DNA of 13,612 nt from Archangiaceae bacterium. GTDB taxonomy: Bacteria > Myxococcota > Myxococcia > Myxococcales > Myxococcaceae. The stretch is taken from positions 1 through 13,612 of the forward strand of contig JAYVCD010000321.1 in the NCBI GenBank assembly GCA_043750125.1. Direction: 5' to 3'. The translations under genes were made by a program, and so were the position numbers. Below are positions 678 through 13,491 of this stretch, in pieces. The notes below the pieces were generated by a model. It was not told the DNA's origin. It did no database searches and was given only the letters and a program-made list of their open reading frames with translations. Position 1 is the stretch's first letter; every line of letters begins with the position of its first letter.

Positions 678-763
678 TAGTTCCGCCCCGCGGGTCTGGC
701 CTGACCAACCCCGATTGCAGATCGCGAGGCTGACAGAGGGTTTTGTAGCTTGAAACAAGGGGA

Positions 764-1165
764 TTGATCCGCACCCTCGGGTACGCCGTCTACACCGGAG
801 CCGACATTGGTGAGTGCCTCGAAACCGCGAGTGCCATACACGACGGCGACATGGACAGTTGGTCCCGCGAATGGTTCCAGACGTCCGAGCGTATCGCAGC
901 GATTGGGGAAACGTGCCACGAGTGCGGCCGAGACATCAGCGCACGCGAGGCGTGGCTTCGCGCCTCCAACTATTACCGTGCCGCCGAGTTCTTCCTGGTT
1001 GCCCTTTTCCCCGATGACCCCCGCGCGAAAAAAGGCAGCACAGCGCAGCCGCGAGACGTTCGCTGCGGCGGGTACCTTGGTGCCCGCGCTGCAGCGTTCG
1101 AGCACAGACTTGCGGCTTTGATCCTGGACCCCGGCTTCTGGTCGTTTGCAGATGTGGTGCGGGGG
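764..1165 (+). pseudogene. Alpha/beta-hydrolase remnant (FrsA / 2,6-dihydroxypseudooxynicotine-hydrolase-like); 5'-truncated, frameshifted and internally deleted
   Basis: The family N-terminal motifs RTLG...GADIGEC, W..EW and AREAWLRASNYYRAAEFF are present. The expected continuation (AAQRSRETFAAA) is in the +1 frame after the A6 run at 1028-1033. At 1067 the sequence jumps to GGYLGARAAAFEHRLAALILDPG, the segment that normally follows the G-x-S-x nucleophile. The catalytic Ser and the C-terminal half are missing. End coordinate approximate. Confidence 0.75.
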
Positions 1166-1272
1166 AAGACGCCCGAACTCGTCCTTGGCCTAAAGGGCGT
1201 CCCCGCCGAGGAGGCCGCGATGGCGATTGGGTATGGCGTTCGAGGGCGAAGAATCGACATCGCCCTACCGGT

Positions 1273-1971
1273 GAGCGACGGAACAGGCTCTCGCCAAGGC
1301 AGGGAAGCGCAGGTTGCGAGCCATTTGGCATGTTGAGTCGCCATCGAAGCGACGATGAGGGCAAACGCCTCGTAGTTCGCAAAGAGGCCGTGGCGGCCGG
1401 TGAGCACATAGCCTTCCAGCCACCCTTCGCAGTTGTGCTCGCTCAACACATCCATCACCCGTCCTTCCGCGGACACGTGGTCGTCGATGGCAATGGTTGG
1501 CTCCTGGAAGCAGCGCGTCTCGACGTCGAACACCGCACCAAGCCGATTCGAATTGGTTTCGTCTGGGCAAAAAAGGCGAAAGGTCTTGGGGTTGCGGGAG
1601 TAGTAGATGTCGCGCAGCATTCCCTCGAGCGCTCGCGTCGACTCGTGGTGAACGGAGTCGTGCTCGGGCACAGAAACCGCGTACGCCGCGAAGTCGGGGA
1701 TATCGAGGGGCACGGTGAGCTTCCCGCCGTTTGCGTGAGGATTCTTGCCCATGGGCCGGTCTCCCTTCGGAGCGAGCTCTTTCAAGTGTCTTGCCAGGCG
1801 TCCGCGCTCATCGAAGAGGCGCTCTGGCTGGTGGCTGCGCATCCACGTCTCGAACATCGACAATTGTTTTGGATCGGCCCGCAAGCCTTCAAGAGGCGCG
1901 GTCTCTGCTTCCCCGTCGCCCACCATGGCTACTGCGAGGAGACCAGGATTATCGAAGACCGCGCCGAACGC
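1273..1971 (-). pseudogene. xfp: Phosphoketolase (XFP/XPK) remnant, truncated at both ends with an in-frame internal deletion
   Basis: AFGAVFDNP...VGDGEAETAPLEG (TPP-binding motif), WMRS..PE.LFD, NPHANGG, FRLFCPDETNSNRL, VLSEHNCEGWLEGYVLTGRHGLF..YEAF and QHAKWL...PWR.PVPSL. Only about 233 codons of a roughly 790-aa enzyme remain, with no native start or stop. Confidence 0.9.
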
Positions 1972-1974
1972 CGT

Positions 1975-2138
1975 CGTCGGTCGGTATTCGCTGAAGAAGT
2001 AGCCGCGGCCCGAGCGGTCAGGCCGGGAAGCATTTTCAGCTCGTCGCCTTCCCAACCGGTGAGGCAATGCGGGATAAACTGGTTGCCCTTCATGCCGCTG
2101 ACCGCATCGAACAGAGCGCTTTCCTCGAGCGCGTTGAA
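1975..2138 (-). pseudogene. Short unidentified coding fragment(s), partly resembling an MBL-fold hydrolase segment
   Basis: The minus-strand frame FNALEESALFDAVSGMKGNQFIPHCLTGWEGDELKMLPGLT has coding-like GC3. WEGDELKMLPGLT (2054-2016) recalls the W.G..L.L.PG.T segment before GGHF in one MBL-fold family. It continues after a frame change as DRSGRGYFFSEY. Family call is from memory only. Confidence 0.3.
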
Positions 2139-3980
2139 GTGAGTCGCACCCGCCTGGCACGCTTTGTTTTTGTCGCGCTCAGCTTGAGCGCCAACGCTTT
2201 CGGGCAAGAGCGATACGCCTTGCTGGTCGGAGCCAATGCCGGCTGGTCAGACGATCGGCCGCTGGCCCATGCGGAATCCGATGCCGAACGGGTGCAGCAG
2301 GCCCTGATCGAAGTCGGAGGATTCAAGCCCGAGCGCATCGAGCTGCTGCGGGACCCCGACGGCTCTGAGGTCCGCGCCCGGCTGCGTCGACTCTCAGATC
2401 GCGCCCGCGCGAGCCCTGAGGGCGCGATCGTTTTTTTCTACTACTCCGGTCACGCCGACCAGAAGTACCTCCACCTGCGCGGAATGCCGTTGGGGTGGGA
2501 CGAGCTCGTCGCGGCGCTTCGGGACATGCCGGCCCGGGTGCGAATCGGGTTGTTCGATGCGTGTCGTTCGGGAAGCGTGCTGGCGACCAAGGGGGGAGCT
2601 CCGACGGCGCTCTTCGAAGCCAAGGCCGAGGAGCCCGTTCAGGGGATGGCATTGATTACGTCCTCGGGCGCCGACGAGTTGTCTCAAGAGACGCGCGCGA
2701 TGCAGGGCAGCGTCTTCACCCACCACTTCGTCTCGGGGTTGCGCGGCGCCGCCGACTTCAATCACGACGGTCGGGTCACGCTCGGCGAGGCCTATCGCTA
2801 CAGCTACGAGCGCACCGAGGCGGACACCGCGGCCACTGCAGTGCCCCAGCGCCCGGCATTTCGAATGGAGCTCAAAGGCCAGGGTGAGCTGACCTTGAGT
2901 GAGGTGACCAGGGCCGGCCCCGGCCTCGTGCTGCCCGCGGGTCCGCGACAGCGATACGTGATCGTCGATTCGCGCGAATGGAAGCTGGTGGCCGAAGGCG
3001 TCAGCCGACCGGAATCGGAAGTGGTGCTGTTTCTGGGCGCAGGCGACTATCGGGTGAAGCGGGTGACGCCCGATGCCCTCGAGGTGGCCAGCGTCCACAT
3101 CGAACGGATTCCCGTTTCAACGGCTTCGTTGACGTTCACCCGCGAGCCCCTGTCCGTCGGATTCGTCAAAGGGCGCCCGGAAGCCGTCGACCCGATCATG
3201 CTGCGCGAGTACCGGCGGGCCGAGGGGCTGAGGTTGTTGGCGATGGGCGAAACGGGCGCGGCGCGCGCGGTCTTCGAGGGAATTCTCGCCGACTGGCCCG
3301 GCGACGTGGGCAGCGTTCGGGGCAAAGCCCGGGCCTACGTCCGGGAAGCAGAGACCTGGGAACGGGTCGGGGACCACGCGCGCGAGCTGGTGAGTCTGCA
3401 AGGAGCATTGGGGCTCGAGCCCACGCTCGCCGAAGACCCGGACTTCACCCGTTGGTACCGGCGGATGGTCGAGGCCGAAGCCGAGCAGAAGCGGGACATC
3501 GAAATCAAAAAGAACGTCGACGTTGAGATCTCGCAAAATCCAAGGCTGAAGAAGCGGTGGGGGCTGGGCATCGAGCTGTTCGGCACCCGGGGCAACATCT
3601 GCGCGATGTTTCAAGTGATGTTCTTTTCGCAGCTGGTTACTTCGCTGAGCATTTCGGCGTTCGGGCCGGGCATGGACTTGAGCGTCAAGTGGGTGCCGCT
3701 GGGGTGGCGGGTGTCGCCCTGGATTCAGTTGGGCGGCTATTACAACTTGAGCCAGCTGTGGAACCCCAACAAAGGTCCGGTGGCCACCATCAACGGCCAA
3801 CCGAGCCCGTTCATCGACAGCTGGAACACCGGCGGTCATGCCGACATCGGGGTGCAGTACTTCGGCACGTTGGGCTTCGTCATCGAGGGCGGCATCGGGG
3901 TCCAGATGCACATGGACTTGCACAATGGCGGCGTGGCGTTCATGCCCTGGCCGAACTTCGCGATGAGCTGGTTTTTCTAA
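2139..3980 (+). CDS. Exported caspase-family (peptidase C14, orthocaspase-like) protease with a TPR-like helical region and a C-terminal outer-membrane beta-barrel-like domain
   Basis: RYALLVGAN first strand, catalytic His in FFYYSGHA (2451-2453), catalytic Cys in DACRSG (2562-2564), S.E...GSVFTHH...GLRGAAD, and an EF-hand-like loop DFNHDGRVTLGE (2754-2789). GTG 2139 gives a clean Sec signal peptide (MSRTRLARFVFVALSLSANAFG/Q), which I prefer to ATG 2067. Helical repeats at about 3198-3476, then amphipathic Gly/aromatic strands from about 3558 ending in terminal WFF. Confidence 0.9.
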   Translation: MSRTRLARFVFVALSLSANAFGQERYALLVGANAGWSDDRPLAHAESDAERVQQALIEVGGFKPERIELLRDPDGSEVRARLRRLSDRARASPEGAIVFFYYSGHADQKYLHLRGMPLGWDELVAALRDMPARVRIGLFDACRSGSVLATKGGAPTALFEAKAEEPVQGMALITSSGADELSQETRAMQGSVFTHHFVSGLRGAADFNHDGRVTLGEAYRYSYERTEADTAATAVPQRPAFRMELKGQGELTLSEVTRAGPGLVLPAGPRQRYVIVDSREWKLVAEGVSRPESEVVLFLGAGDYRVKRVTPDALEVASVHIERIPVSTASLTFTREPLSVGFVKGRPEAVDPIMLREYRRAEGLRLLAMGETGAARAVFEGILADWPGDVGSVRGKARAYVREAETWERVGDHARELVSLQGALGLEPTLAEDPDFTRWYRRMVEAEAEQKRDIEIKKNVDVEISQNPRLKKRWGLGIELFGTRGNICAMFQVMFFSQLVTSLSISAFGPGMDLSVKWVPLGWRVSPWIQLGGYYNLSQLWNPNKGPVATINGQPSPFIDSWNTGGHADIGVQYFGTLGFVIEGGIGVQMHMDLHNGGVAFMPWPNFAMSWFF

Positions 3981-3984
3981 AAGC

Positions 3985-4683
3985 TCACTGCTTGATCCAC
4001 TGCAGTTCGCTCACCACCAACCCAGACGGAAAGGGCTGGTTTGCACGCACGGCCTCGAGCAGGGGCTGGAGCGCGAATTCGGAAGCGCCGTAAACGGCGA
4101 AGACCCGCTCGCGACCCAGGGCCGAGTCGAGCTGGGTGGCTGCCGGCAACATCGACTGGTTCGGACGGTAGGCGGCCGCGATCTGCCCGCCCACCGGGTA
4201 GTAGACCGAGACCTGGCCGATGCCATCTTTGGAAAGGATGGCGACGAAGCCCTCGGTGGGAACCCGCAGCTCGAAGCGCACCTCGTCGCCGGGGTGGGTC
4301 ACGGCGCCGTCGGCCAGCTTTTCGCTGCCGCTGGCCGTCTTGCGATGAACGGTGAGGGCGATGGTTCCCTTTGCGGTCCAATCGCTCTCTTTGGCATTGA
4401 GCGCGAACACGCCTGCCAGCACCATCGCTGCCGCCGCGACGAATGCCGGAAGCCACCGCAAGATCCACCGCGATTGCGGCGGCGCTTCGAGCTTTGCGAC
4501 CACCGGCCCGACGGGATGCTTGATGAAGAAGGCGCGGTTGTCGGCCCGGAGATCTTCAAGGCGTGCCCGCTCGGTCGCCGATGCCTGGAGCGCGGCCTCG
4601 ATCGCTTGTCGTTGCTCGGGCTTGAGATCTCCGGCGAGGTACCGCTCGAGCAAGGCGTCGGCAATCGGACGATGGGGACTCAC
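3985..4683 (-). CDS. Membrane-anchored anti-sigma factor-like protein with an extracytoplasmic DUF4384-type domain (232 aa)
   Basis: The GTG start overlaps the sigma-factor stop (GTGA 4683-4680), with SD-like GGAAGG. N-terminal anti-sigma-domain pattern D.LLERYLAGDL..EQR..IE..L, a single TM helix WLPAFVAAAAMVLAGVFAL, then PGDEVRF...GFVAILSKDG.G.VSVYYP and LP....LD...G.ER.FAV as in DUF4384-like domains. Confidence 0.85.
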   Translation of the reverse strand: MSPHRPIADALLERYLAGDLKPEQRQAIEAALQASATERARLEDLRADNRAFFIKHPVGPVVAKLEAPPQSRWILRWLPAFVAAAAMVLAGVFALNAKESDWTAKGTIALTVHRKTASGSEKLADGAVTHPGDEVRFELRVPTEGFVAILSKDGIGQVSVYYPVGGQIAAAYRPNQSMLPAATQLDSALGRERVFAVYGASEFALQPLLEAVRANQPFPSGLVVSELQWIKQ

Positions 4684-5267
4684 GCGGCACCTTCCATCGA
4701 CAACCGGGTCGCGCGTTTTCGACCGCGCTCGGAAAAGGCTTTCAGCACCCGGCCCACCGTCTTGCGCGACAGGTCCAGAGCATCGGCAATCTCGAGGGTC
4801 GAATGACCCTCGACGAAGTACAGCACTGCGATCGTCATCGTCTGCTCGTCTTCGCCTGAAGTGAGCAGCGCCAGATCTTTGGCGGCCTCGACCCTGGCCA
4901 TCGGCTCGACCGGCGAGGCCACCTCGAAGGCAGGATCTTCGGCACCCTCGTCGAATTCGATCGCCCGAAGTTGACCGCTCCAGCGGGCCCGCTTCCGCAG
5001 CCGGTCGAACGATTGATAGGTCGCCATCTGGTACAGCACGGTGAACGGCGCAGCGGCGCCGGTCCATCGGCTGCTCTGGCGCAGGTAATCGAGGAAGACT
5101 TCCTGGGTTACGTCGGCGGCTTCCGCTTCATCGTCGAGCAGCTTGCGCGCGCGCCGAAAAATCGCGGGGGCATACTGGCTGTACAAACTCTTCAGCTTTT
5201 CTGCGTCGGCGGCCACCGCTGGGCTTCTAACATCCCAAAGCGCAGCGTCGGGCACCGAGCAGTTCAT
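4680..5267 (-). CDS. ECF (group IV) sigma-70 family RNA polymerase sigma factor
   Basis: Region 2: LY..YAP.IFRRAR.LL.DEAEAADVTQEVF...LYQMAT...DRLR. Region 4: EGHSTLEIADALDLSRKTVGRVL. 195 aa. An alternative in-frame start is GTG 5216. Confidence 0.93.
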   Translation of the reverse strand: MNCSVPDAALWDVRSPAVAADAEKLKSLYSQYAPAIFRRARKLLDDEAEAADVTQEVFLDYLRQSSRWTGAAAPFTVLYQMATYQSFDRLRKRARWSGQLRAIEFDEGAEDPAFEVASPVEPMARVEAAKDLALLTSGEDEQTMTIAVLYFVEGHSTLEIADALDLSRKTVGRVLKAFSERGRKRATRLSMEGAA

Positions 5268-5310
5268 GAATATGGGTCGCGCGGGATCCGTCGCGCGGGC
5301 CTTTTATTTT

Positions 5311-5340
5311 GTTGTCCCCAAAAGATTGGGTGGGACGACT
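5311..5340. promoter_or_regulatory. Pseudo-palindromic candidate ECF promoter/operator in the divergent intergenic region
   Basis: GTTGTCCC-N13-GGGACGAC is a 7/8 inverted repeat preceded by the AT-rich tract CTTTTATTTT. It reads TGTCCC-N17-CGACT on + and CGTCCC-N17-CAACA on -, which is ECF-like -35/-10 spacing. Function is inferred. Confidence 0.4.
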
Positions 5341-5389
5341 GATGACATGCAAAAGCACATTCAGTGCTGGCGACTCGCGGAGCATCATC

Positions 5390-5728
5390 ATGAAGGTTCT
5401 TCTCGCTGGGCTTTTGGCGTTGGGCATGTTGGCCGGCTGCGGAGGAGGTGGAACCACTCCGCTGCAGGCGTGCAAAGACCAGGGCGCTCAGGAATGTAAG
5501 AAAATGTGGAGCTGCAACAGCCCGGTGAAGATCGGCAATGACGAAGCCAGCTGCATCACCTCGTACGACAGCCTTTGCCAGCTTGCCGCGGCGGGCTGCC
5601 CCACTGGGAAGACGCAGGACTTGTCGAAGGTCCCGGCGTGCATCTCGGACACCGCGAATGCGACCTGCGCCGAGTACAACGCCGGCTCGTACAGGGCGGC
5701 GAACTGCGACGCGGTGAAGTGTAAGTAG
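5390..5728 (+). CDS. Small Cys-rich lipoprotein (112 aa)
   Basis: SD GGAG at 5379-5382, signal peptide II MKVLLAGLLALGMLAG/C with a canonical LAGC lipobox, and 10 further Cys (an even number, compatible with 5 disulfides). Confidence 0.88.
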   Translation: MKVLLAGLLALGMLAGCGGGGTTPLQACKDQGAQECKKMWSCNSPVKIGNDEASCITSYDSLCQLAAAGCPTGKTQDLSKVPACISDTANATCAEYNAGSYRAANCDAVKCK

Positions 5729-5792
5729 CGGGCAGCCCGATGGGGTGAGCGGGGCCGTTTGATCAACGGGGCGTGAAGGCTGCGATTCGGGT

Positions 5793-6662
5793 ATGAGCGC
5801 ATCGGCCTTGACCGACCCCACTGCAGCCCGCGCGACCTGTGCCGTGGTCACCCTTCCGGGCGGCGCGCGGGCGATCAAAGACCGGGCGAGCGGGCAGGTG
5901 ATGCATTGCGGCACGGGCCCTTCGGTCGAGCCGGGCGAAATCTATGTGACTCCTTCGCGCCTGGAGGCCCGGTTGGGGGAAGGGGGCGAGGGGCTGGTCC
6001 TCTTCGACGTGGGGCTGGGCGCCGCGTCCAATGCCCTGGCCGCGTGGCGGGTTTCGGAAGGAGCTCCACCGGGATCACGCAAGCTCGAGATCGTCAGCTT
6101 CGATCACGACCTGCTGCCGCTCGAGCTGGCGCTGCTGCCAGAGAACGCAGAGTCCTTCGGGCTGGCCGACCCCGCGGCCCAGGCCGCCGCCCGTGCGCTG
6201 TTCGCGGTAGGCCGTTTTGAAACCGCGCGAACGGTGTGGCGCCTGGCGCTGGGCGACTTCCCGCAGTGCCTGGCGCTCGAAGGCCAGGCTCGCGCCGACA
6301 TCGTGTTCTGGGACCTCTACTCGGCACGCACCAACCCCGTGCTGTGGACGGTGACGATGTTTGCGCAGCTGCGGCGGGCCTGCCGAGACGGAGCGACGCT
6401 TCACACCACCAGCGCCTCGACCTCGGCCCGCACCGCGATGTTGCTCGGCGGTTTTGCCGTCGGGCGAAGCGTGGGCACCGGCAACCGGGACGAGACGACC
6501 ATTGCCTCGACCCATCACCAGACGCTGACGGCTCCTCTCGACGCGCGCTGGCTGCAGCGATTGGGGCGGTCTTCGGCAGCCTTTCCGTCCGATGTCTCGA
6601 CCGAAGTCGACGCGCGCGCGGCCGCAGTCGCCAGGGTCCAGGGGTTGCCGCAGTTTCTGTGA
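5793..6662 (+). CDS. SAM-dependent methyltransferase, stand-alone MnmC N-terminal-domain-like (mnm5s2U methyltransferase family)
   Basis: Motif I VLFDVGLGAASNA, IVSFDHD, and ADIVFWDLYSARTNPVLWT resembling MnmC D.F.P..NP..W. Also SAST..R.AML.GGF.V..G.G...ETTIA. Confidence 0.75.
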   Translation: MSASALTDPTAARATCAVVTLPGGARAIKDRASGQVMHCGTGPSVEPGEIYVTPSRLEARLGEGGEGLVLFDVGLGAASNALAAWRVSEGAPPGSRKLEIVSFDHDLLPLELALLPENAESFGLADPAAQAAARALFAVGRFETARTVWRLALGDFPQCLALEGQARADIVFWDLYSARTNPVLWTVTMFAQLRRACRDGATLHTTSASTSARTAMLLGGFAVGRSVGTGNRDETTIASTHHQTLTAPLDARWLQRLGRSSAAFPSDVSTEVDARAAAVARVQGLPQFL

Positions 6663-6664
6663 GG

Positions 6665-6680
6665 TGGCGGTCGGTTTGCA
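6665..6680 (+). promoter_or_regulatory. Putative sigma54 -24/-12 promoter for the SDR-derived gene
   Basis: TGGCGGTCGGTTTGCA with GG-N10-GC spacing and a TTTGCA -12 element. It is followed by SD AAGGAG (6709-6714) and ATG 6719. Confidence 0.6.
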
Positions 6681-6718
6681 CCTGAGGTCTGCATCGGCTC
6701 GATTGCAAAGGAGCGCGC

Positions 6719-7174
6719 ATGAAAATCGCCCTGAACACTCCGTACGTCGAGCACTCGAAGAATTCCCTCGCAGTCGAACCGACGAACCTTCCGCCGGTCT
6801 ACGAGCCCCAGGTGGTCGTCAGAGCGATCCTGCATGCCGCGACCCACCCGGTTCGCGAGATCTACGCCGGAGGTTTTGCCAAGGTGACGGCGATCTCGGG
6901 GACCTTTGCTCCGCGGACCACCGACGCGGTGATGAAGCGCACGATGTTCAACGGGCAGAAAAAGCACCAGCCCCGGCAGCGCGATGGGGACGGCGCCCTG
7001 TACGCGCCGGGAAGTGATGGTCGGGTGCGCGGCGACTACACCGGCCGGGTTCTGCGGCACAGTCTGTACACCCGCTTCGCGATGAACCCGGTTCGCAGCG
7101 CGCTGTTGGCTTTGGTGATGGGCGGGGCGGCGCTCGCAGCTTCGCTTCGAAGACGTCGAATCGCCGGGTTGTAA
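6719..7174 (+). pseudogene. Short-chain dehydrogenase/reductase with the Rossmann and catalytic core deleted in frame
   Basis: LNTPYVEHSKN.L.VEP...PPVYEP.VV..AILHAA.HPVREIY.GG is the post-catalytic part of an SDR subfamily with a C-terminal hydrophobic tail. There is no TGxxxGxG or YxxxK, although the SD and start (MKIAL) look native. Confidence 0.8.
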
Positions 7175-7197
7175 AAAACAGTGGTAGGTCGGCGGGC

Positions 7198-7800
7198 ATG
7201 AATCGGTGCTCATGGCTGCTGACGTGCCTGCTGATGTCCGGTTGCGGCGGCTGTTCCCCCGATTCCGTCAAACCTCCCGGCGATCAAGTGATGGGCACCT
7301 TCGTGCTGCACAGCAAGGGGATCTACGCCGCGTGTGGCCTGCCCGGCTTTCCGGCGAACTACGATTTCGAAGGGACCTTCTCGCGCTTCACCGATGGGGG
7401 GCGCGTCTTCTTCACCGTCCAGGGAATTCAGTTCGACGCGGGGTTCGATGGGCAGTTTGCCTCGTACGGTGAAACGGAAAATCGAGGCTTCGACCTGGCC
7501 GACGGGGGCAATTGCAACTCATGCGAGATGAGGTTGGTGCAGACGGGCACGTTGGCCCTGTTGTCGGAATCGCAAAGCAAAGCCCTGGGTGACGTCTGCC
7601 CGACCCATGCTTTGGACGGTGGGGTGCCGGGCCTGAACGAGGACGCGGGCATCGCGCTGCCGGGGACGACCGATGCGGGCTTCGATGCCGTGCGTGCCTG
7701 CGGAGAGCTCAAAGTGTCGATCACCGGTGAAGGCTTCTGCGACCCGGCCTGCTACTCGTGCCAGCTGCAGTACCGCCTCAGTGGCGAGCGGAAGAAGTAA
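7198..7800 (+). CDS. Hypothetical Cys-containing lipoprotein (200 aa)
   Basis: Signal peptide II MNRCSWLLTCLLMSG/C, coding-like GC3, paired Cys (NCNSC, CDPACYSC) and recurrent DGG/DAG motifs. Confidence 0.8.
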   Translation: MNRCSWLLTCLLMSGCGGCSPDSVKPPGDQVMGTFVLHSKGIYAACGLPGFPANYDFEGTFSRFTDGGRVFFTVQGIQFDAGFDGQFASYGETENRGFDLADGGNCNSCEMRLVQTGTLALLSESQSKALGDVCPTHALDGGVPGLNEDAGIALPGTTDAGFDAVRACGELKVSITGEGFCDPACYSCQLQYRLSGERKK

Positions 7801-7859
7801 AGTCACAGTTGTCCGTGGGCCCTCTGCTCGTAACGCGCTGCAACTTCTCCGCCTGCCCG

Positions 7860-7875
7860 CGGCAAGCCTCTTGCT
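7860..7875 (+). promoter_or_regulatory. Putative sigma54 -24/-12 promoter
   Basis: CGGCAAGCCTCTTGCT with GG-N10-GC spacing and a TTGCT -12 element. The predicted transcription start is only a few nt before ATG 7889, so the mRNA would be nearly leaderless. Confidence 0.5.
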
Positions 7876-7888
7876 CGGGACGGCGCCC

Positions 7889-8231
7889 ATGAAGCCCCGT
7901 TTGTCGCTGCTTCTGATTTCCTGCCTCTGGGTCGGGTGTGGTCGTTCGCTCTTCCCGCCCTCGGCTGTCCCCAACCGCAGTGCTGCTCGAAGCAGGCCGA
8001 TTGCACCGGCAGTCAGACCTGCATTCCACCGGGCGCGCCGCTGGGGTGTGGCGCCTGCTTTCCTGCAACGAGCTCGTGCGCCATCGACTCTGATTGCAGC
8101 CCTTCGACGACCGGAAAAATCTGCAAGCCAATCTTTTGCAGCTGCAACGGTTCACTGAGTTGTCAGGACGGTTGTACTGCGAACAGCGACTGTCAGACCG
8201 AAGGAGATGTCTGCAATACGGCACCGGCCCC
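7889..8231 (+). pseudogene. Cys-rich repeat lipoprotein, frameshifted after the signal peptide and 3'-truncated
   Basis: Signal peptide II MKPRLSLLLISCLWVG/C from ATG 7889 is in one frame. The Cys-rich body with three C-x4-DC units (CSKQADC, CAIDSDC, CTANSDC) is in the -1 frame from about 7960 (ORF 7936). The pattern stops at about 8225. Confidence 0.7.
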
Positions 8232-8338
8232 ACCCAGCCCGACATCACGGTCGGGTGCCTGTTCAGTTACCTGCGAATGCGGCTGGCGGAAGCGGTGCCG
8301 GAAAGAAGCTACCCCGGTTGAATCGGCTGACCGACGAG
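8232..8338 (+). pseudogene. Glutathione S-transferase C-terminal fragment
   Basis: TQPDITVGCLFSYLRMRLAEAVPERSYP then, after a -1 shift in the C run at 8312-8315, RLNRLTDE. This fits the GST N-capping box (S/T-x-x-D) and the YP.L motif. Confidence 0.5.
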
Positions 8339-8379
8339 CGCGACCGAGACGATGCCGCTTTGGCCGGCGAACTCGCGGC

Positions 8380-8568
8380 CTACTTCACCAGCAGGTCCGG
8401 TCGGGCCCGCCCGTCGAAGGTGAAGTTCGGCCACTTCGAATCGAAGGTCAGAATTTCGATTCCCTGGGCACTCACCACTGCGGTGTCCTCGATCTTCGCC
8501 CCAGGCAGCGAAGGGTTCCACGCCACGGCGTTCGACGGGCCCAGCCGCAGCTGCGAGTCGGGCCGGGT
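8380..8568 (-). pseudogene. M24 (Xaa-Pro peptidase / creatinase fold) C-terminal fragment
   Basis: AVAWNPSLPGAKIEDTAVVSAQGIEILT.D..WP.....GRARPDLLVK* matches the M24 terminal G.(R/K)IED..VV...G.E.LT motif. The stop is native and the whole 5' part is missing. Confidence 0.75.
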
Positions 8569-8686
8569 CGGTTGCCAGCTGACACCTCTGGGTGTCCTCT
8601 CCGACCAGGCGTTCGACCAGCGCGAGGATGTCGGGATCTTCGAAAACCTCGGGGTCCGCCCACGGAGGCACGAAGGGCAGGGTGAC
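8567..8686 (-). pseudogene. Internal fragment resembling a phytanoyl-CoA dioxygenase (PhyH-like) family protein
   Basis: VTLPFVPPWADPEVFEDPDILALVERLVGEDTQRCQLATD. The P.IL..VE.L.G.D segment precedes the HxD motif in PhyH-like enzymes. 40 codons with no start or stop of their own. Confidence 0.5.
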
Positions 8687-9222
8687 TCAACCTGATCCGG
8701 GCCGGCGCGAACCTGCGGGTGGTCGACGGATTTGATCGTTCGCCGGGCAAGGCGGGCAAGCCGGCCGCCCCGCGCAAGGGCGCGCCCTCGAAGGCCAGCG
8801 GCCCGGGGCCGTCTGCGATTGTCGGCGGCTCGATTCACGCCACCGCTGCGATGAAGCGCCTTGCTGAAGCGGGCAGGCGCGCCGCGATGGGCATGGGTGG
8901 GTACAACAGCCAGGGGTTGTGTGCGACCGGAGTGAGTCGCGCGATCCAGTCGGCGTTGGGGCTTTCGGTTCACGGCAACGGGAACCAGATCGACAACAAC
9001 CTGCCAAAGAACAAGTTCAAGCAGGTGAACATCTCGTTGGCCGAAGCGCTGAAGATCCCCGGGTTGGTTCTGACCTGGGAAAAGACCTCGAGCGCGGCAG
9101 GCAGCATCTACGGACACACCGCGATCACCCTGGGTGATGGTCATTCGTCGTCCAGCGACTTCATCGAGCGCAACACCCACAACACCGGCCGATCGGGCCT
9201 GAAGATCTTCGTTCCGATCTAA
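8686..9222 (+). pseudogene. 5'-truncated LysM-domain protein with a C-terminal papain-like (CHAP/NlpC-like) putative peptidoglycan amidase domain
   Basis: In frame and upstream of the ORF-track start is LNLIRAGANLRV (8686-8721), the end of a LysM motif (N.I..G..L.I/V), preceded directly by TGA. A Pro/Lys/Ala linker follows, then GLCATGVSRA (Cys), YGHTAI (His) and SDF. Confidence 0.7.
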
Positions 9223-9238: not shown

Positions 9239-10291
9239 CTACGGGTGCGGATGCCGGTGATGGACGTCTGAGGCGTGCGGATGCTCGTGGCTCAACGCTT
9301 CGTGCCGGTGAAGGTGCGAGTGCGCAGGGCCCGCGGGGCCGTGTGGATGGTGTTCATCGTGGGTGTGCAGGTGGTCGTGTTCCAGCGCCTCGTGAAGGTG
9401 CGGGTGTTGGTGGCGGGTCCGCACCAGTACGACGACGCCCAGGATCATCAGCGCGGCCGCGGCGGCTTCCGGCCACGAAGGGCGTTCCCCGAGCAGGGGA
9501 ATGGCCAGCAGCGCCCCGACGTAAGGAGCCGTGGCAAACAATGCCGCCTGGCGCGCCGCCCCCAGCAGCCGCAGGGCCCGGGTCGCCAGCACGATGCTCA
9601 GGCCGTAGCCCAGGCTGCCCACCAAAAGCGCAGCCCCGATCTGCTGCAGGGGCGGGAAGGCCTGATGGGTCACCCTCGCCAGGCCCAGTGAAACGCAGCC
9701 GGCCGCCAGGGACTTGAACCGGGCGCTCGCGACGGGATCTCGCAGCGAGAGGCGTTGGGTGAGGTTGTTGTCCAGCGCCCAGCAGGCACAGGCCCCCACC
9801 ACGGCGGCGATCCCGAGCCCATCGGGTGCCAGCGTCCCGGGGCGGTAGGCGAGCAGCCCCGCGCCGAGAAGAATCAACCCGACCGCAGCCAACTCGCGCC
9901 GACCCAGATGCTCGTGGAAGAGCCCGACCGCGAGGATGATGGTCAACGGTGCTTCCAGATTGAGCAGCAGCGTCGAGGTCAGGCCGGTCAGTCGCTGCAG
10001 CCCCACCAACAAGAGAATCGGGCCCAGGACCCCTCCGAAACCGACGATTCCGGCCAGGAGCGGCGCGTCAGCCCAGCGAAGAGGGGCCTCTGCTGAAGGC
10101 CCGGGCCTGCGAGAAATCATTCGGACGGCGGTCAGCCCGAGCCCCGCTCCCAGGTAGAGAAGACTGGCGAGCGCCAGCGGGCTCGAGCCCGGCAGCAGCA
10201 ATTTCGAAAGCGGAGCGCTGGCCCCGAACAGAGCCGCGGAGGCCAACGCGAGCGCACTGCCCCGGACTTCACTGCGTTCAAAAACCGGCAT
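9239..10291 (-). CDS. EamA/DMT family transporter with a His-rich C-terminal tail (350 aa)
   Basis: About 10 hydrophobic helices in two repeats, with ALASAALFGASAP.SKLLL, LLLNLE, CWALDNNLT, GYGLS and FA.APYVGA. Start ATG 10291 lies 4 nt after the upstream stop and has a GAGG SD. Confidence 0.9.
   Translation of the reverse strand: MPVFERSEVRGSALALASAALFGASAPLSKLLLPGSSPLALASLLYLGAGLGLTAVRMISRRPGPSAEAPLRWADAPLLAGIVGFGGVLGPILLLVGLQRLTGLTSTLLLNLEAPLTIILAVGLFHEHLGRRELAAVGLILLGAGLLAYRPGTLAPDGLGIAAVVGACACWALDNNLTQRLSLRDPVASARFKSLAAGCVSLGLARVTHQAFPPLQQIGAALLVGSLGYGLSIVLATRALRLLGAARQAALFATAPYVGALLAIPLLGERPSWPEAAAAALMILGVVVLVRTRHQHPHLHEALEHDHLHTHDEHHPHGPAGPAHSHLHRHEALSHEHPHASDVHHRHPHP
9242..9412 (-). 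repeat. Duplicated His-rich peptide repeat (HxHxHxHEALxHxHxHxxDxHHxH twice)
   Basis: 22 His in the last 57 residues; the two units are separated by GPAGPA. Confidence 0.85.
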
Positions 10292-10295
10292 CGGG

Positions 10296-11663
10296 CTATT
10301 CGTCCTCGCTCTCGTCTTTTCCCAGGCCATGCTTCCGCACCAGGCGATGCAGGTAGACGCGATCGAGGCCCGCTTCCTTCGCGGCCGCGGTCACGTTGCC
10401 TGAGAAGCGCACCAACAGATCGTCGAGGTAACGCCGCTCGAAGTCGTCGACCAGCTCGTTTTTAGATTCTTTGAACGGCCGATGGCTGGGTCCCTTTTCG
10501 GCACCGGGCGCTCGCTGGTTCGGCGCCAGGGTCTCGAGCGAAGGAAGCTCGGCCATCGAGCCCAACGCGAGCATCCGTTCGACCAGGTTCTTCAGCTCGC
10601 GGACGTTGCCGGGGAAATGGTACGCGCTTAGCGCGGCGCGAAGCTCGGGGCCGATCAGCGAGGGAGACTTCCCCTGCTTCCGGGTAAACGAGTCGATCAG
10701 CAGGTCGAGATCTTCGCGGCGTTCGCGCAGGGGCGGCAGCACCAGCTGTACGGTGAACAGCCGGTGGTACAGATCTTCGCGGAACCGGCCCGCCTTTACT
10801 TCGGCCTTCAAGTCTCGGTGAGTGGCCGCGATGATCCGGAAGTCGATCGTCTTGAAGTCCGAAGAGCCCAGGGGGCGGACTTCTTTTCGCTCGAGCGCGC
10901 GCAGCAGTCGAGGCTGCAGCTCGAGAGGAAGCTCGGCGACCTCGTCGAAGAAGAGCGTGCCCTTGTGTCCCTGCTCGATGAGCCCGACCCGGTCGGCGAC
11001 GGCGCCGGTGAGCGCTCCTTTTCGGTGACCGAACAGCTCAGACTCGATCAGGCTCGCAGTCACCGTCGAGAGGTCCGCCACCAACAGCGGCCCTTTGGCC
11101 CGTGGGCTGGCATCGTGAATCGCGCGGGCGCAGACCTCTTTGCCGGTTCCGGTCTCGCCGGTGATCAGCACCGCGGCGTCGGTGACCGAGACCCGTTCGG
11201 CGAGCGCAAACAGCTGCCGCATCGCGACGCTTTTGCCCAGCATTCCTCCGAAGCTCGTGGATTGTGAGAGCTCTGAGCGGCCGTACCCCACGAAGGCGGG
11301 CAGCAGCTTGAGCATCACCCGGCCGAGGCGAATGATGGCTCCGCTTTGGGCGCTGACCCGATCGAAGCGAACGTTGTCGCAAAACGAGCCATTGGTAGAG
11401 CCGAGATCCGTGAGCTGAACTCCGGCGGCCGTCACCTCGATCATCAGGTGCTCGCGCGAGACCGAACCGTCGACGACGACCAGCTCGCACGATTCGTCTT
11501 TGCCCACCCGGTAGCGGCCGCCCTTGAGCTCGATGCTCTTGCCCAGGTCGGTGCCGGTCACCACCGCCAGTCGCAACGGCACCGCGGTGGACTGGGTGGG
11601 GGCGAGCAGCTTCTCGGTGACGGAGGTCGGCGATTCTTGCGGTACGCGCGTCTTTTCACTCAT
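10296..11663 (-). CDS. FHA-domain sigma54-dependent transcriptional regulator (FHA - AAA+ - Fis HTH)
   Basis: FHA motifs VGK...D.SVSREH and DLGSTNGS, Walker A GETGTGKE, ESELFGH.KGALTGA, Walker B TLFFDEV, GRFREDLYHRL, PGNVREL.N, and HTH GNVTAAAKEAGLDRVYLHRL. Confidence 0.95.
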   Translation of the reverse strand: MSEKTRVPQESPTSVTEKLLAPTQSTAVPLRLAVVTGTDLGKSIELKGGRYRVGKDESCELVVVDGSVSREHLMIEVTAAGVQLTDLGSTNGSFCDNVRFDRVSAQSGAIIRLGRVMLKLLPAFVGYGRSELSQSTSFGGMLGKSVAMRQLFALAERVSVTDAAVLITGETGTGKEVCARAIHDASPRAKGPLLVADLSTVTASLIESELFGHRKGALTGAVADRVGLIEQGHKGTLFFDEVAELPLELQPRLLRALERKEVRPLGSSDFKTIDFRIIAATHRDLKAEVKAGRFREDLYHRLFTVQLVLPPLRERREDLDLLIDSFTRKQGKSPSLIGPELRAALSAYHFPGNVRELKNLVERMLALGSMAELPSLETLAPNQRAPGAEKGPSHRPFKESKNELVDDFERRYLDDLLVRFSGNVTAAAKEAGLDRVYLHRLVRKHGLGKDESEDE

Positions 11664-11781
11664 CGGTTGGCAGGGGGCGAGTCGCGAAGGATCTGAAGGG
11701 TGGTCATGCGGCGGGTCCGAAGGCTCTGCGCTTTTGCCCGATCCAGCAACTGTCGAAACGAGACCGGTGGTGGGTGGGCCG

Positions 11782-12660
11782 TCAGCCCGAGGTCTCCCGG
11801 GTTGCGCAGGACCAGCCGGATTCCCAACAGGGCCAGGACCACGCAGGCACCAGGGTGTGGTCGTGCGACATCATTTGTTTGTTCTTCGCGCCGTAATCGG
11901 TGTTCGCCGTTTCCCGCTCGACCCCAAACGCGCTCGTTCCCGCGTACTCGCGCGGCAGCCATTGATTGCCGAGCACCTTCATCGATCGCTCGTAGGGTCT
12001 GAACCGCGCGCTGCTCGGCGACTGCTGTTCGAACGGCAGCCGGATTTTCCCGCTGCCCACTTCGCCCGGGGCGGCCGTTTCCAGCACCCGGGTGGTGGTC
12101 TGGTCGATCAACCCTCCGCGGGCCTCGACCGCATTTTTGAGCCGGTTGCTCGTCGACGACAGATCTCGGGCGTGCCGCTGCATCTGATAAAATTTGGCCG
12201 CCGCGGCCAGGTCCAGGCTCGTCCAGAGCGGGGTCGGATAGTTGAGGGCCCTGAAGTCGTTGAGCCCGTCGAGCGCAGTCTGAATCTGCCGGGCTTCGCC
12301 GCACGCGCACGAGCGCTGTCTGCAAAGGACGTTGCTGCAGCAGCCATCGAAGTTGCCCTTGATGTCACTGATGCCGGTGCGAACGTTGAAGAGGGCCGAG
12401 CGCACGAAGCTGGCGTAGGCGACCCCCGCGTGGTGTCCGGCCAGCGCGGCTCCGTCGGCGGCGGCAGCGCGGTTGATCACCGACAGGGCGTTGAAATAGC
12501 GCGCCGTGATCACCGCCTGGTTGTAGGCCGAGGCGTCGGCCAGTTCCTGCATTCGCATCCGCTCGCGCGTCCGGTGCGCGAGCGACAGGTTCATGAACAC
12601 GAACAGGCTCAGCACCAGCAGGCACAACGACCAGAGCACCAGGCTTTGTCCCCGGTGCAT
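11782..12660 (-). CDS. Tad/Flp pilus TadG-like (pseudopilin-type N-terminus) protein, possibly 3'-truncated
   Basis: RGQ prepilin-like motif followed by a TM helix (SLVLWSLCLLVLSLFVFMNLSL) and Q..ADASAY..AV..AR.FN.....NRA. ATG 12660 is preferred to 12783. Confidence 0.7.
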   Translation of the reverse strand: MHRGQSLVLWSLCLLVLSLFVFMNLSLAHRTRERMRMQELADASAYNQAVITARYFNALSVINRAAAADGAALAGHHAGVAYASFVRSALFNVRTGISDIKGNFDGCCSNVLCRQRSCACGEARQIQTALDGLNDFRALNYPTPLWTSLDLAAAAKFYQMQRHARDLSSTSNRLKNAVEARGGLIDQTTTRVLETAAPGEVGSGKIRLPFEQQSPSSARFRPYERSMKVLGNQWLPREYAGTSAFGVERETANTDYGAKNKQMMSHDHTLVPAWSWPCWESGWSCATRETSG

Positions 12661-12690
12661 CTTCAGCCCGCTGCGCGTCGGCAGCGGAAA

Positions 12691-13491
12691 TTCAAGCAGG
12701 CGCTCGAGGGGCTGATTGTCCAGCGGCGACTGCCGGCGACCCGCGCTCACGTGGTGCACTGCGTCACCACCCTGTTTCCACACGAGGCGATGAGCCCGCT
12801 CAATGTCGGCGAAGTCGACGCGACGACCCCCCGGGGGACGCTGCTCAAAGACAGCACCGACGTGACGTTGACCGACGAGTCACGCCAGCCGACGTGGACC
12901 CAGTCGATCTCGACCGACCTGCGGCAGATCTTCGAATCGGGACGCTCGCTCGAGCCGCGCATCAGCAGCAGCGGGCTGGTCTTCAAAGCGGTGATCCAGG
13001 CGTGCGAGGCCGCCGCGCAGGGCCCGGGCCTTCAAAAGCTCCAACAGTCGTTTGGGGGGCCGCTGGAAATCGATGTCACCCGCCGAATGCCGACCCGAGA
13101 GGTCAGCCGACTGCTCGAAGCGGCGCTGTCGGTGCTGGGCCTGGCGGGAAGCGACTCGGAGGCTGCGCTCGAGGCGGTGGGCGCGGCGCTCTTCGATGCG
13201 GTGGAAAACACCGCCCAGGGCCGGACCTTGAAGCGAGGCCGGGACGAGTCGGCACAAGCGCTCTGGCCGATGCTGGTCGAGCTGCTGCAGGGGCTGGTGA
13301 GCCCGGGCGAACGCAGGCTCGAGGCGGTGCGACCTCGATTCGCCCGCGTCCTCTTCAAAGACGAGCCGCTGCCGATTGCGCTGTACGTCGGTTGTTTTCG
13401 AAGGTTCCTCTACCGCCACGGGGGCTTCGAGCTGCAGGCGCAGGTCGAGACCGAGTCGGTACACCGTTACGACGTGGTGTTGCGCTGGTGA
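12691..13491 (+). CDS. DUF2378 / TIGR02265-like Myxococcales protein, preceded in frame by what looks like the tail of a Ser/Thr kinase domain (5'-truncated fusion; possible restart at ATG 12790)
   Basis: GLVFKAV, P..E..RLL, AL.AVG, T..GR.L, GERR.....ARV.F...LP...Y.G and terminal Y..V.RW match the family. In-frame upstream FKQALEGLIVQRRLPATRAHVVHCVTTLFPHE resembles the helices that close myxobacterial kinase domains. GAGG lies at 12784-12787 before ATG 12790. Confidence 0.7.
   Translation, partial: FKQALEGLIVQRRLPATRAHVVHCVTTLFPHEAMSPLNVGEVDATTPRGTLLKDSTDVTLTDESRQPTWTQSISTDLRQIFESGRSLEPRISSSGLVFKAVIQACEAAAQGPGLQKLQQSFGGPLEIDVTRRMPTREVSRLLEAALSVLGLAGSDSEAALEAVGAALFDAVENTAQGRTLKRGRDESAQALWPMLVELLQGLVSPGERRLEAVRPRFARVLFKDEPLPIALYVGCFRRFLYRHGGFELQAQVETESVHRYDVVLRW

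Follow-up and report, generated by a model that had tools for sequence, protein, structure and literature searches.

The window analyzed here is contig C321 (JAYVCD010000321.1, forward strand), a stretch of 13,612 nt from an Archangiaceae bacterium whose 6.17-Mb, 460-contig assembly (GCA_043750125.1) may contain assembly errors; the relatives of the window are Myxococcota. Between positions 2139 and 5728, as judged from the open reading frames and the sequence itself, the window encodes four intact proteins: an exported caspase-like protease of the peptidase C14 family, a single-pass membrane anti-sigma factor, a sigma factor of the extracytoplasmic function (ECF) type and a small Cys-rich lipoprotein (Table 1). 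An earlier interpretation made without database searches, here called the sequence-only reading, had described four contiguous unbroken genes, and all four are present and uninterrupted. It had also pointed to the coupling of the sigma and anti-sigma genes and to the close approach of the protease gene. Both features can be read directly in the DNA: the sigma stop codon overlaps the anti-sigma start codon as GTGA (4680-4683), and the protease and anti-sigma genes converge with a 4-nt gap (3981-3984) between their stop codons. Because of this convergence, the protease gene is adjacent to the sigma operon but lies outside it and is not co-transcribed with it.

Table 1. Features of the sigma factor locus and of the proteins it encodes. 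Positions are those of the window; aa, amino acid residues; PWM, position weight matrix.
Feature	Positions	Strand	Description
Peptidase C14 caspase-like protease	2139-3980	+	613 aa; GTG start at 2139; Pfam C14
Catalytic dyad of the protease	2451-2564	+	His105 in YSGH, codon 2451-2453; Cys142 in DACRSG, codon 2562-2564
Post-Cys loop of the protease	2568-2630	+	aa 144-164; Lys151-Gly152 at 2589-2594; candidate self-processing site
Protease domains in the structural model			Caspase aa 24-246; beta-sandwich aa 240-337; TPR-like helices aa 352-466
Protease C terminus in the structural model			Predicted 8-stranded barrel or sheet aa 474-612; terminal WFF
Single-pass anti-sigma factor	3985-4683	-	232 aa; structural model and weak Pfam matches
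Anti-sigma parts in the structural model			Cytoplasmic helical domain aa 9-66; transmembrane helix aa 75-96; disordered linker aa 97-108
Anti-sigma periplasmic part in the structural model			Immunoglobulin (Ig)-like, DUF4384-like beta-sandwich aa 109-231
Lys105-Gly106 in the juxtamembrane linker of the anti-sigma	4366-4371	-	Candidate site-1 cleavage site
ECF sigma factor	4680-5267	-	195 aa; TIGR02937, Sigma70_r2
Weaker candidate promoter for autoregulation of the sigma operon	5276-5302	-	AGGCCCG-N15-GCGAC; second-best PWM match, 13.9
Candidate sigma-dependent promoter	5313-5339	+	TGTCCCC-N15-ACGAC; sole exact match in the window
Cys-rich lipoprotein	5390-5728	+	112 aa; lipobox LAGC; Cys17 plus 10 more Cys; GGAG located 8 nt ahead of the ATG

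The protease is a member of family C14, with the caspase-hemoglobinase fold and the His-Cys dyad of that family, and it scores 57.5 bits against Pfam Peptidase_C14 (cut-off 21.4, E 2e-15). The sequence-only reading had credited it with a complete dyad and a signal peptide, and both are upheld: His105 and Cys142 are invariant across 60 aligned relatives, and the N terminus, MSRTRLARFVFVALSLSANAFG, has by eye the character of a Sec-type signal peptide (residues 1-22), residues 4-19 being helical in the model. That model, built with AlphaFold2 on the 60 relatives, has a mean predicted local distance difference test score (pLDDT) of 84.2. When the catalytic domain was searched with Foldseek, metacaspases and caspases were the best matches (E 1e-7); the PDB sequence matches of the protease are metacaspases only, with the D-x-C before the nucleophile common to both. 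From its strand pattern and terminal aromatic residues, the C-terminal sheet may be a small outer-membrane barrel, by which the protease is probably tethered at the outer membrane. More than 1209 full-length relatives of this TPR-barrel protease were found among 8000 candidates scored. We also considered the beta-sandwich of the protease (residues 238-345) as a copy of the DUF4384 domain; hhalign against the anti-sigma domain returned a probability of 0.2%, and the idea was dropped.

The anti-sigma model has a pLDDT of 89.7, with values above 90 for the helices of residues 9-66 and below 50 for linker residues 97-103. The transmembrane helix and periplasmic domain of this model, together with the signal peptide of the protease, agree with the extracytoplasmic topology that had been suggested for the system. 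With a threshold of E <= 1e-3 a profile of the anti-sigma matches 7159 cluster representatives with the same architecture, and with E <= 1e-10 it matches 4231, most of them proteins of 230-260 residues matched along their full length; a domain scan of the longer family members for fusions revealed only PEGA, GerE and zf-HC2, none of them relevant. One relative (P0007) bears a precomputed PF14326 (DUF4384) annotation and another family member (P0129) scores 60.4 bits. At the positions of the H-x3-C-x2-C zinc ligands the window protein has no Cys or His; these residues are present in other members of the family, in rows of the HLDACAEC type and in the paralogs on contigs C355, C429 and C231. Fold searches with the sensor domain recovered generic Ig-like and macroglobulin-like sandwiches (Foldseek E ~6e-4, VIA Z up to 8.7), scores of about Z 8 being the usual noise level for such searches; no function was drawn from them.

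The sigma factor belongs to the ECF group (group 4) both by its family score and by the co-transcribed anti-sigma gene directly downstream. It scores 57.5 bits against TIGR02937 sigma70-ECF (cut-off 42.9), 35.5 bits against Sigma70_r2 (cut-off 24, E 8.8e-9) and matches Sigma70_ECF with E 2e-5. The models for sigma region 4 remain under their cut-offs, and a helix-turn-helix was found at residues 142-185.

The association of these genes is conserved. A scan of species-representative genomes with the anti-sigma alignment returned 14 loci (L001 to L014) with a full-length anti-sigma ortholog, all from Myxococcota. By tblastn of these loci and their 6-kb flanks, the sigma gene is directly upstream of the anti-sigma gene in every one of them, and a caspase ortholog with a catalytic domain 55-61% identical lies within 6 kb in nine; a tenth, L007, has a fragment of the protease barrel at the contig end. 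The protease gene comes directly after the anti-sigma gene on the same strand in L002, L003, L004, L013 and L014, further downstream on that strand in L009 and L005, and upstream in L010. In L008 the genes are arranged tail-to-tail as in the window, with an anti-sigma 44% identical and about 44-60% identity at the locus. The recurrence of this layout indicates that adjacency has been kept even without co-transcription, and the persistence of adjacency in the tail-to-tail loci argues for a relation between the proteins over mere co-transcription. The linked proteases are of two forms, one with TPR helices and the barrel (window, L008, L010) and a shorter one with two hydrophobic C-terminal helices (L002, L003, L004, L009, L013, L014).

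The same genome encodes at least five sigma/anti-sigma/caspase modules, located on C321, C108, C429, C355 and C231, and three of its four DUF4384-like matches adjoin a C14 match. The paralogous sets on C108, C429 and C355 are sigma/metacaspase operons, with 4-nt overlaps in the case of C355. The module on C231 (G000:C231:5736-7678, minus strand) retains an intact anti-sigma of 267 residues; its sigma, a 144-residue frame with an aberrant end, and its caspase, a 178-residue fragment beginning at the DAC motif, look broken.

Across a sample of 61 genomes of the phylum, the anti-sigma profile matches 39 genomes (up to 25 matches in one) and PF00656, the caspase family, 36 (up to 17). Of the 140 PF00656 matches, at least 89 have a match to the anti-sigma family no more than 3 kb away (150 matches listed, 116 further). 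The anti-sigma gene is directly upstream on the same strand in 80 of these 89 pairs, where 63-372 nt separate the two matched stretches; in the other nine it is downstream (five), divergent (three) or convergent (one, the window). Such a pair occurs in at least 32 of the 36 caspase-bearing genomes. If a 5-Mb genome is taken to have about 4 anti-sigma matches and the span is set at 6 kb, chance adjacency would by a rough estimate account for less than one pair in total. A cross-phylum set of 16 loci, for which an anti-sigma-family protein of Latescibacterota was the starting point and which was searched with hidden Markov models built in this analysis, has the order sigma, anti-sigma, caspase on one strand in all 16, with caspase-domain E values of 1e-47 to 1e-61. 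The lineages represented are Planctomycetota, Gemmatimonadaceae, Latescibacterota, Acidobacteriota, Fibrobacterota, Spirochaetia and, once, Myxococcota. The expectation that C14, anti-sigma and ECF genes are linked in other genomes is strongly borne out, and the linkage reaches well beyond the Myxococcota.

A related arrangement is found in L035 (G009:C72:17000-27000), from a genome of the same family, where a row of genes at 733-7971 on the minus strand encodes a GGDEF protein, a receiver-sigma54 activator, a GNAT protein, an anti-sigma-family member and a C14 caspase of 751 residues; the same coordinate pattern occurs in G049:C53. One distant member of the anti-sigma family carries the NCBI name 'ActD-like protein', and the row in L035 matches the layout of the act operon of Myxococcus xanthus; the locus may be act, and ActD may be a member of the family. 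The phenotypes of the act operon described by Gronewold and Kaiser in 2001 reportedly concern the timing of C-signal production.

A Lys-Gly pair marks both the anti-sigma and the protease. An alignment of 48 diverse anti-sigmas first revealed it as a near-invariant feature right after the transmembrane helix; in a set of 151 sequences position 105 is Lys in 138 (and Arg once), position 106 is Gly in 141, and an Arg stands two residues upstream in 82. In the model the pair directly precedes the first strand of the periplasmic domain and lies beside the segment of residues 97-103. In caspases, processing happens in the loop after the catalytic Cys. The corresponding loop of the window protease (residues 144-164) is its only long low-confidence loop, with pLDDT below 50, and Lys151 and Gly152 within it are invariant in the 60 relatives. 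A Lys-Gly is found 4-5 residues past DxCxSG in 120 of 120 matches to the protease family, mostly as TRKGG, and the caspases of the cross-phylum set have TRxKGG or TRLKGG in 15 of 15. Metacaspases are reported to cleave after Arg or Lys (PMC3501461). The presence of the pair in both the linker and the loop, the specificity of metacaspases and the location of caspase processing together lead us to propose the two Lys-Gly sites as candidate cleavage sites.

The spacer between the divergent sigma and lipoprotein genes contains a candidate promoter motif, which in its exact form ends 50 nt before the lipoprotein ATG. The exact pattern TGTCCCC-N15-xCGAC has seven matches in the 6.17-Mb genome, compared with one for a reversed control pattern. 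Among the orthologous loci, a TGTCCCC-like-N15-xCGAC sequence lies 9-36 nt before the sigma start in L002, L003, L004, L005, L009, L010, L013 and L014, and in L012 the motif, here with a spacer of 16 nt, lies 89 nt upstream of the sigma start. When up to one mismatch was allowed, the 14 related loci were found to contain 15 matches, each of them on the strand of the sigma gene: seven before sigma genes, six before Cys-rich lipoprotein genes and two elsewhere (L007). The six lipoprotein-linked motifs (L002, L003, L004, L009, L013 and L014) stand 9 nt before the ATG, some 5-7 kb downstream. The lipoproteins concerned in L002 (10418-11827), L003 (10399-11817), L004 (5939 onward) and L014 (11138-12571), all on the plus strand, have 470-478 residues with repeated C-x-x-C and DGCGG motifs; no Pfam family was found for these large Cys-rich proteins. 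Elsewhere in the genome of the window an exact motif (G000:C31:3690-3716, minus strand) lies 13 nt before a gene (1799-3676, minus strand) for a 625-residue lipoprotein with a Cys-rich N terminus and a Gly-rich stretch, which by blastp is not homologous to the other motif-linked lipoproteins.

In a PWM scan of the window the two best matches (14.1 and 13.9) both fall in the 122-nt spacer between the sigma and lipoprotein genes, and neither exceeds 16.4, the score that marks the 95th percentile in shuffled sequence; the pattern with up to two mismatches occurs eight times in the window against a shuffle mean of 7.06, which is no enrichment. The case for the promoter consequently rests on the exact-pattern counts and on recurrence in relatives. 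The sequence-only reading had the sigma factor driving the divergent lipoprotein gene, and the motif at 5313-5339 and its counterparts in six related loci lend this support, although the particular lipoprotein is not conserved. The window protein has no Pfam or NCBIfam match; weak matches to the first 55 residues of the L013 and L014 lipoproteins are the extent of its conservation, its look-alikes in the Atlas are Myxococcota lipoproteins scoring below 0.9 that serve as leads only, and among 13 loci examined a divergent lipoprotein gene beside sigma recurs only in L003 and L004. Judged by its motif, the window lipoprotein is a likely member of the regulon. As a separate observation, lipoprotein genes flank the paralogous modules on C108 (before sigma and after the caspase) and C355 (after the caspase), and these lipoproteins are not obviously related to one another. 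The spacer also contains two copies of the direct repeat CCGCGCGAC at 5277-5298 (plus strand), which can fold as a hairpin, is followed by a T-run and overlaps the weaker sigma promoter; it might serve as a site for a regulator or as an element resembling a terminator.

The gene linkage itself has been in print since 2012, when Asplund-Samuelsson et al. (PLoS One, PMC3501461) reported that four of the five metacaspases of M. xanthus DK 1622 are in operons with sigma-70-family factors and noted the same structure in Anaeromyxobacter, Haliangium, Sorangium, Ralstonia and Fibrobacter. These sigma/metacaspase operons show the same linkage as the module described here, and roles in cell death were suggested for them; the account given there of the operons names no anti-sigma, DUF4384 domain, motif, promoter or mechanism. 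The paralogs on C108, C429 and C355 have the operon structure, and the window, with its convergent protease gene, does not. To a module with published gene linkage the window adds one more member, which has a TPR-barrel protease and is unusual in its convergent layout. The earlier statement that no mechanism has been demonstrated holds: full-text searches found no literature describing the mechanism of a caspase/anti-sigma/ECF module. The main text of the ECF classification paper (PMC7826278) does not mention caspase, C14 or DUF4384, and in the part of its supplement covered here DUF4384 is mentioned only for ECF25 anti-sigmas.

Three known systems resemble the proposed switch. In the DdvS/DdvA pair of M. 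xanthus, as described in PMC11506125 and PMC6061681, an ECF sigma is likewise associated with a single-pass anti-sigma and, in the periplasm, with TPR and a caspase-fold protease. The caspase-fold domain was proposed to act as a site-1 protease upon induction by a signal, and the truncated anti-sigma was shown to be degraded in a manner that depends on RseP. In DdvA, however, a CHAT protease is fused to the anti-sigma and was proposed to cut in trans within a dimer. This TPR-CHAT fusion is absent from the window, where a separate C14 protein has the TPR helices and its own predicted membrane tether, and the 232-residue anti-sigma has only the Ig-like domain. In the type III-E craspase system (Cas7-11, Csx29, Csx30, RpoE), the caspase-fold protease Csx29 cuts the sigma-binding inhibitor Csx30 between its N-terminal sigma-binding part and its C-terminal domain, and some Csx30 groups are reported to carry a DUF4384 domain at the C terminus (bioRxiv 2022.08.17.504292). 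Craspase is cytoplasmic and RNA-guided and uses a TPR-CHAT protease, in contrast to the extracytoplasmic system of the window. The third is the sigmaE system of Escherichia coli, where RseA is degraded by DegS and then RseP (summarized in PMC11506125). The proposed switch would share with it a periplasmic site-1 cut, an M50 site-2 protease and the release of the sigma factor, and the genome encodes an M50 RseP-like protein with a full-length PF02163 match (G000:C28:20576-22165, E 4.3e-66). The site-1 protease would be a caspase-fold cysteine protease encoded with the sigma/anti-sigma pair, whereas DegS is a PDZ serine protease whose gene lies elsewhere. An analog of RseB was not seen.

We propose that the locus encodes a protease-gated ECF switch, in which the exported caspase homolog cuts the anti-sigma and so releases the sigma factor, and we put the probability of this reading at about one half. 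The sigma factor would be held at the inner membrane by the single-pass anti-sigma, whose Ig-like periplasmic domain sits on a short flexible linker. An envelope signal would activate the protease, perhaps through a cut in its own Lys-Gly loop, and the protease, acting as a dedicated site-1 protease, would then cut the anti-sigma after Lys105 of the linker. The anti-sigma stub would be removed by the RseP-type site-2 protease of the genome. The freed sigma factor would transcribe its own operon and the genes behind TGTCCCC-N15-xCGAC, which here would include the divergent lipoprotein gene. The more specific and general form of the proposal, that exported caspase homologs are dedicated site-1 proteases that activate themselves at TRxK/GG and cut the anti-sigma at RxK/G near the membrane (the slash marking the cut), we advance tentatively, as somewhat less probable than its negation. 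Co-folding of protease residues 23-470 with anti-sigma residues 97-232 gave no answer (score 0.00), which speaks neither for nor against binding.

Several observations weigh against a protease-gated switch. Four orthologous loci (L001, L006, L011 and L012) have no caspase in the flanks examined, the upstream flank of L006 being 657 nt, and in the phylum sample none of the listed anti-sigma matches lies near 51 of the 140 caspase matches. The strictness of the Lys in the linker, with a single Arg in 151 sequences, and the neighboring Gly could be structural, since the pair stands at the start of the first strand. The promoter of the sigma operon in the window is a weak match only, and neither the PWM nor the exact-pattern scan of the window found a sigma-type motif before the protease gene. 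The window anti-sigma scores 22.1 bits against DUF4384 (PF14326), under the cut-off of 27, and 16.7 bits against zf-HC2, under the cut-off of 22.2, so that both family names are weak for this protein taken alone; of the earlier designation as a DUF4384 anti-sigma, the transmembrane and periplasmic architecture, with its many relatives, stands, and the domain assignment itself falls below the Pfam threshold. L035 has no adjacent sigma gene, from which it appears that the membrane protein and the caspase can work without one, and which points to this pair, not the sigma factor, as the conserved core. Finally, the usual operon co-transcribes the protease with the sigma factor, an arrangement that fits equally well with the protease being an output of the switch.

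This last point leads to the alternative in which the protease is an output and not a trigger. The sigma/anti-sigma pair would sense its signal otherwise, for example through a DegS-like or self-cleaving step, the protease would act on envelope lipoproteins or on cell-death or remodeling targets, and the DUF4384-like domain might bind it as an inhibitor or as a monitor of its activity. We consider this, the main rival, rather unlikely; the points in its favor are these: in the 80 same-strand pairs the protease gene follows the anti-sigma gene and so would be induced with the sigma factor; DUF4384 is often fused to protease domains, according to the part of bioRxiv 2022.08.17.504292 concerned with them; the pair in L035 does without a sigma gene; and autolytic or cell-death roles were suggested for these very Myxococcus metacaspases (PMC3501461). 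Yet the protease genes of the window and L008 are convergent and still adjacent, without a sigma-type motif, and the alternative leaves unexplained why a shared Lys-Gly should occur in the flexible linker where a site-1 cut is needed. Nor does any other conserved substrate gene accompany the trio across phyla, in searches that covered only the three genes.

Both DdvA-DdvS and the type III-E systems couple a caspase-fold protease with an ECF sigma in defense (PMC11506125; bioRxiv 2022.08.17.504292), and this raises the further prospect of an anti-phage or programmed-death switch, which would respond to a phage-derived periplasmic signal and control defense or suicide genes. The many paralogs per genome, with up to 25 anti-sigma and 17 caspase matches, resemble diversifying sensor families and are in keeping with this. 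It nevertheless seems improbable: PADLOC returned a generic caspase match (6.7e-7) for the protease and nothing for the anti-sigma, the sigma factor or the lipoprotein, a scan of 26 frames of the window found neither a cas nor a CHAT domain, no repeat array of the CRISPR (clustered regularly interspaced short palindromic repeats) kind was found in the window, and the sole predicted targets are Cys-rich lipoproteins. This alternative is about the nature of the signal and of the output, and the site-1 mechanism can hold alongside it. In our estimation it is very improbable that the window module is a decaying or uncoupled copy whose protease gene was inverted out of the operon in a degraded neighborhood, adjacency being a remnant that no longer has a function. 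In favor of this reading, the window's pair is the sole convergent one among the 89, a phosphoketolase remnant abuts the protease gene, and both the sigma and the caspase of the C231 module, also in this genome, are fragmentary. However, all four genes of the window are intact, the catalytic and motif residues are invariant, the tail-to-tail layout is kept in L008 despite the divergence of that locus to about 44-60% identity, and the TPR-barrel protease has its more than 1209 full-length orthologs.

The surroundings of the four genes had been described as full of broken genes, a description that is borne out in part. The phosphoketolase remnant, a 395-residue frame at 973-2160 on the minus strand in which XFP_N is recognizable only by its end and XFP only over its first two-thirds, extends 22 nt into the start region of the protease gene, and a Pfam scan of the window frames found no XFP_C downstream of it. 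On the other side, the frames at 7198-8695 are suspicious: four overlapping plus-strand frames in different phases without a Pfam match, possibly frameshifted gene(s) or assembly errors, followed by a weak CHAP-like frame at 8719-9222. Between these frames and the lipoprotein gene lies a gene for an MnmC2-like S-adenosylmethionine-dependent methyltransferase (5793-6662, plus strand; Methyltransf_30, E 3e-13), which starts 65 nt past the lipoprotein stop on the same strand and might therefore share the transcript from the sigma-type promoter. The remainder of the contig encodes an EamA transporter (9239-10330, minus strand), an FHA-sigma54 activator (10296-11663, minus strand) and a DUF2378 protein (11524-13491, plus strand), the last of a kind typical of myxobacteria.

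Caspase homologs abound in bacteria, but a substrate or role is known for hardly any of them. ECF sigma factors, for their part, form a major class of signaling proteins, and the triggers of many of their groups are not known. The trio described here brings the two together in a form that offers a direct and cheap test, with one protease, one substrate of 136 residues and one Lys. If the proposed mechanism is true, it would add a new class of site-1 protease to regulated intramembrane proteolysis and would give the bacterial caspase relatives their first defined physiological substrate. It would join DdvA and craspase in one theme, that of caspase-fold proteases releasing sigma factors. In the window, a TPR-bearing cysteine protease tethered at the outer membrane would relay an envelope signal to a sigma switch at the inner membrane, and the module to which it belongs spans at least seven phyla and is present up to about 20-fold in single myxobacterial genomes.

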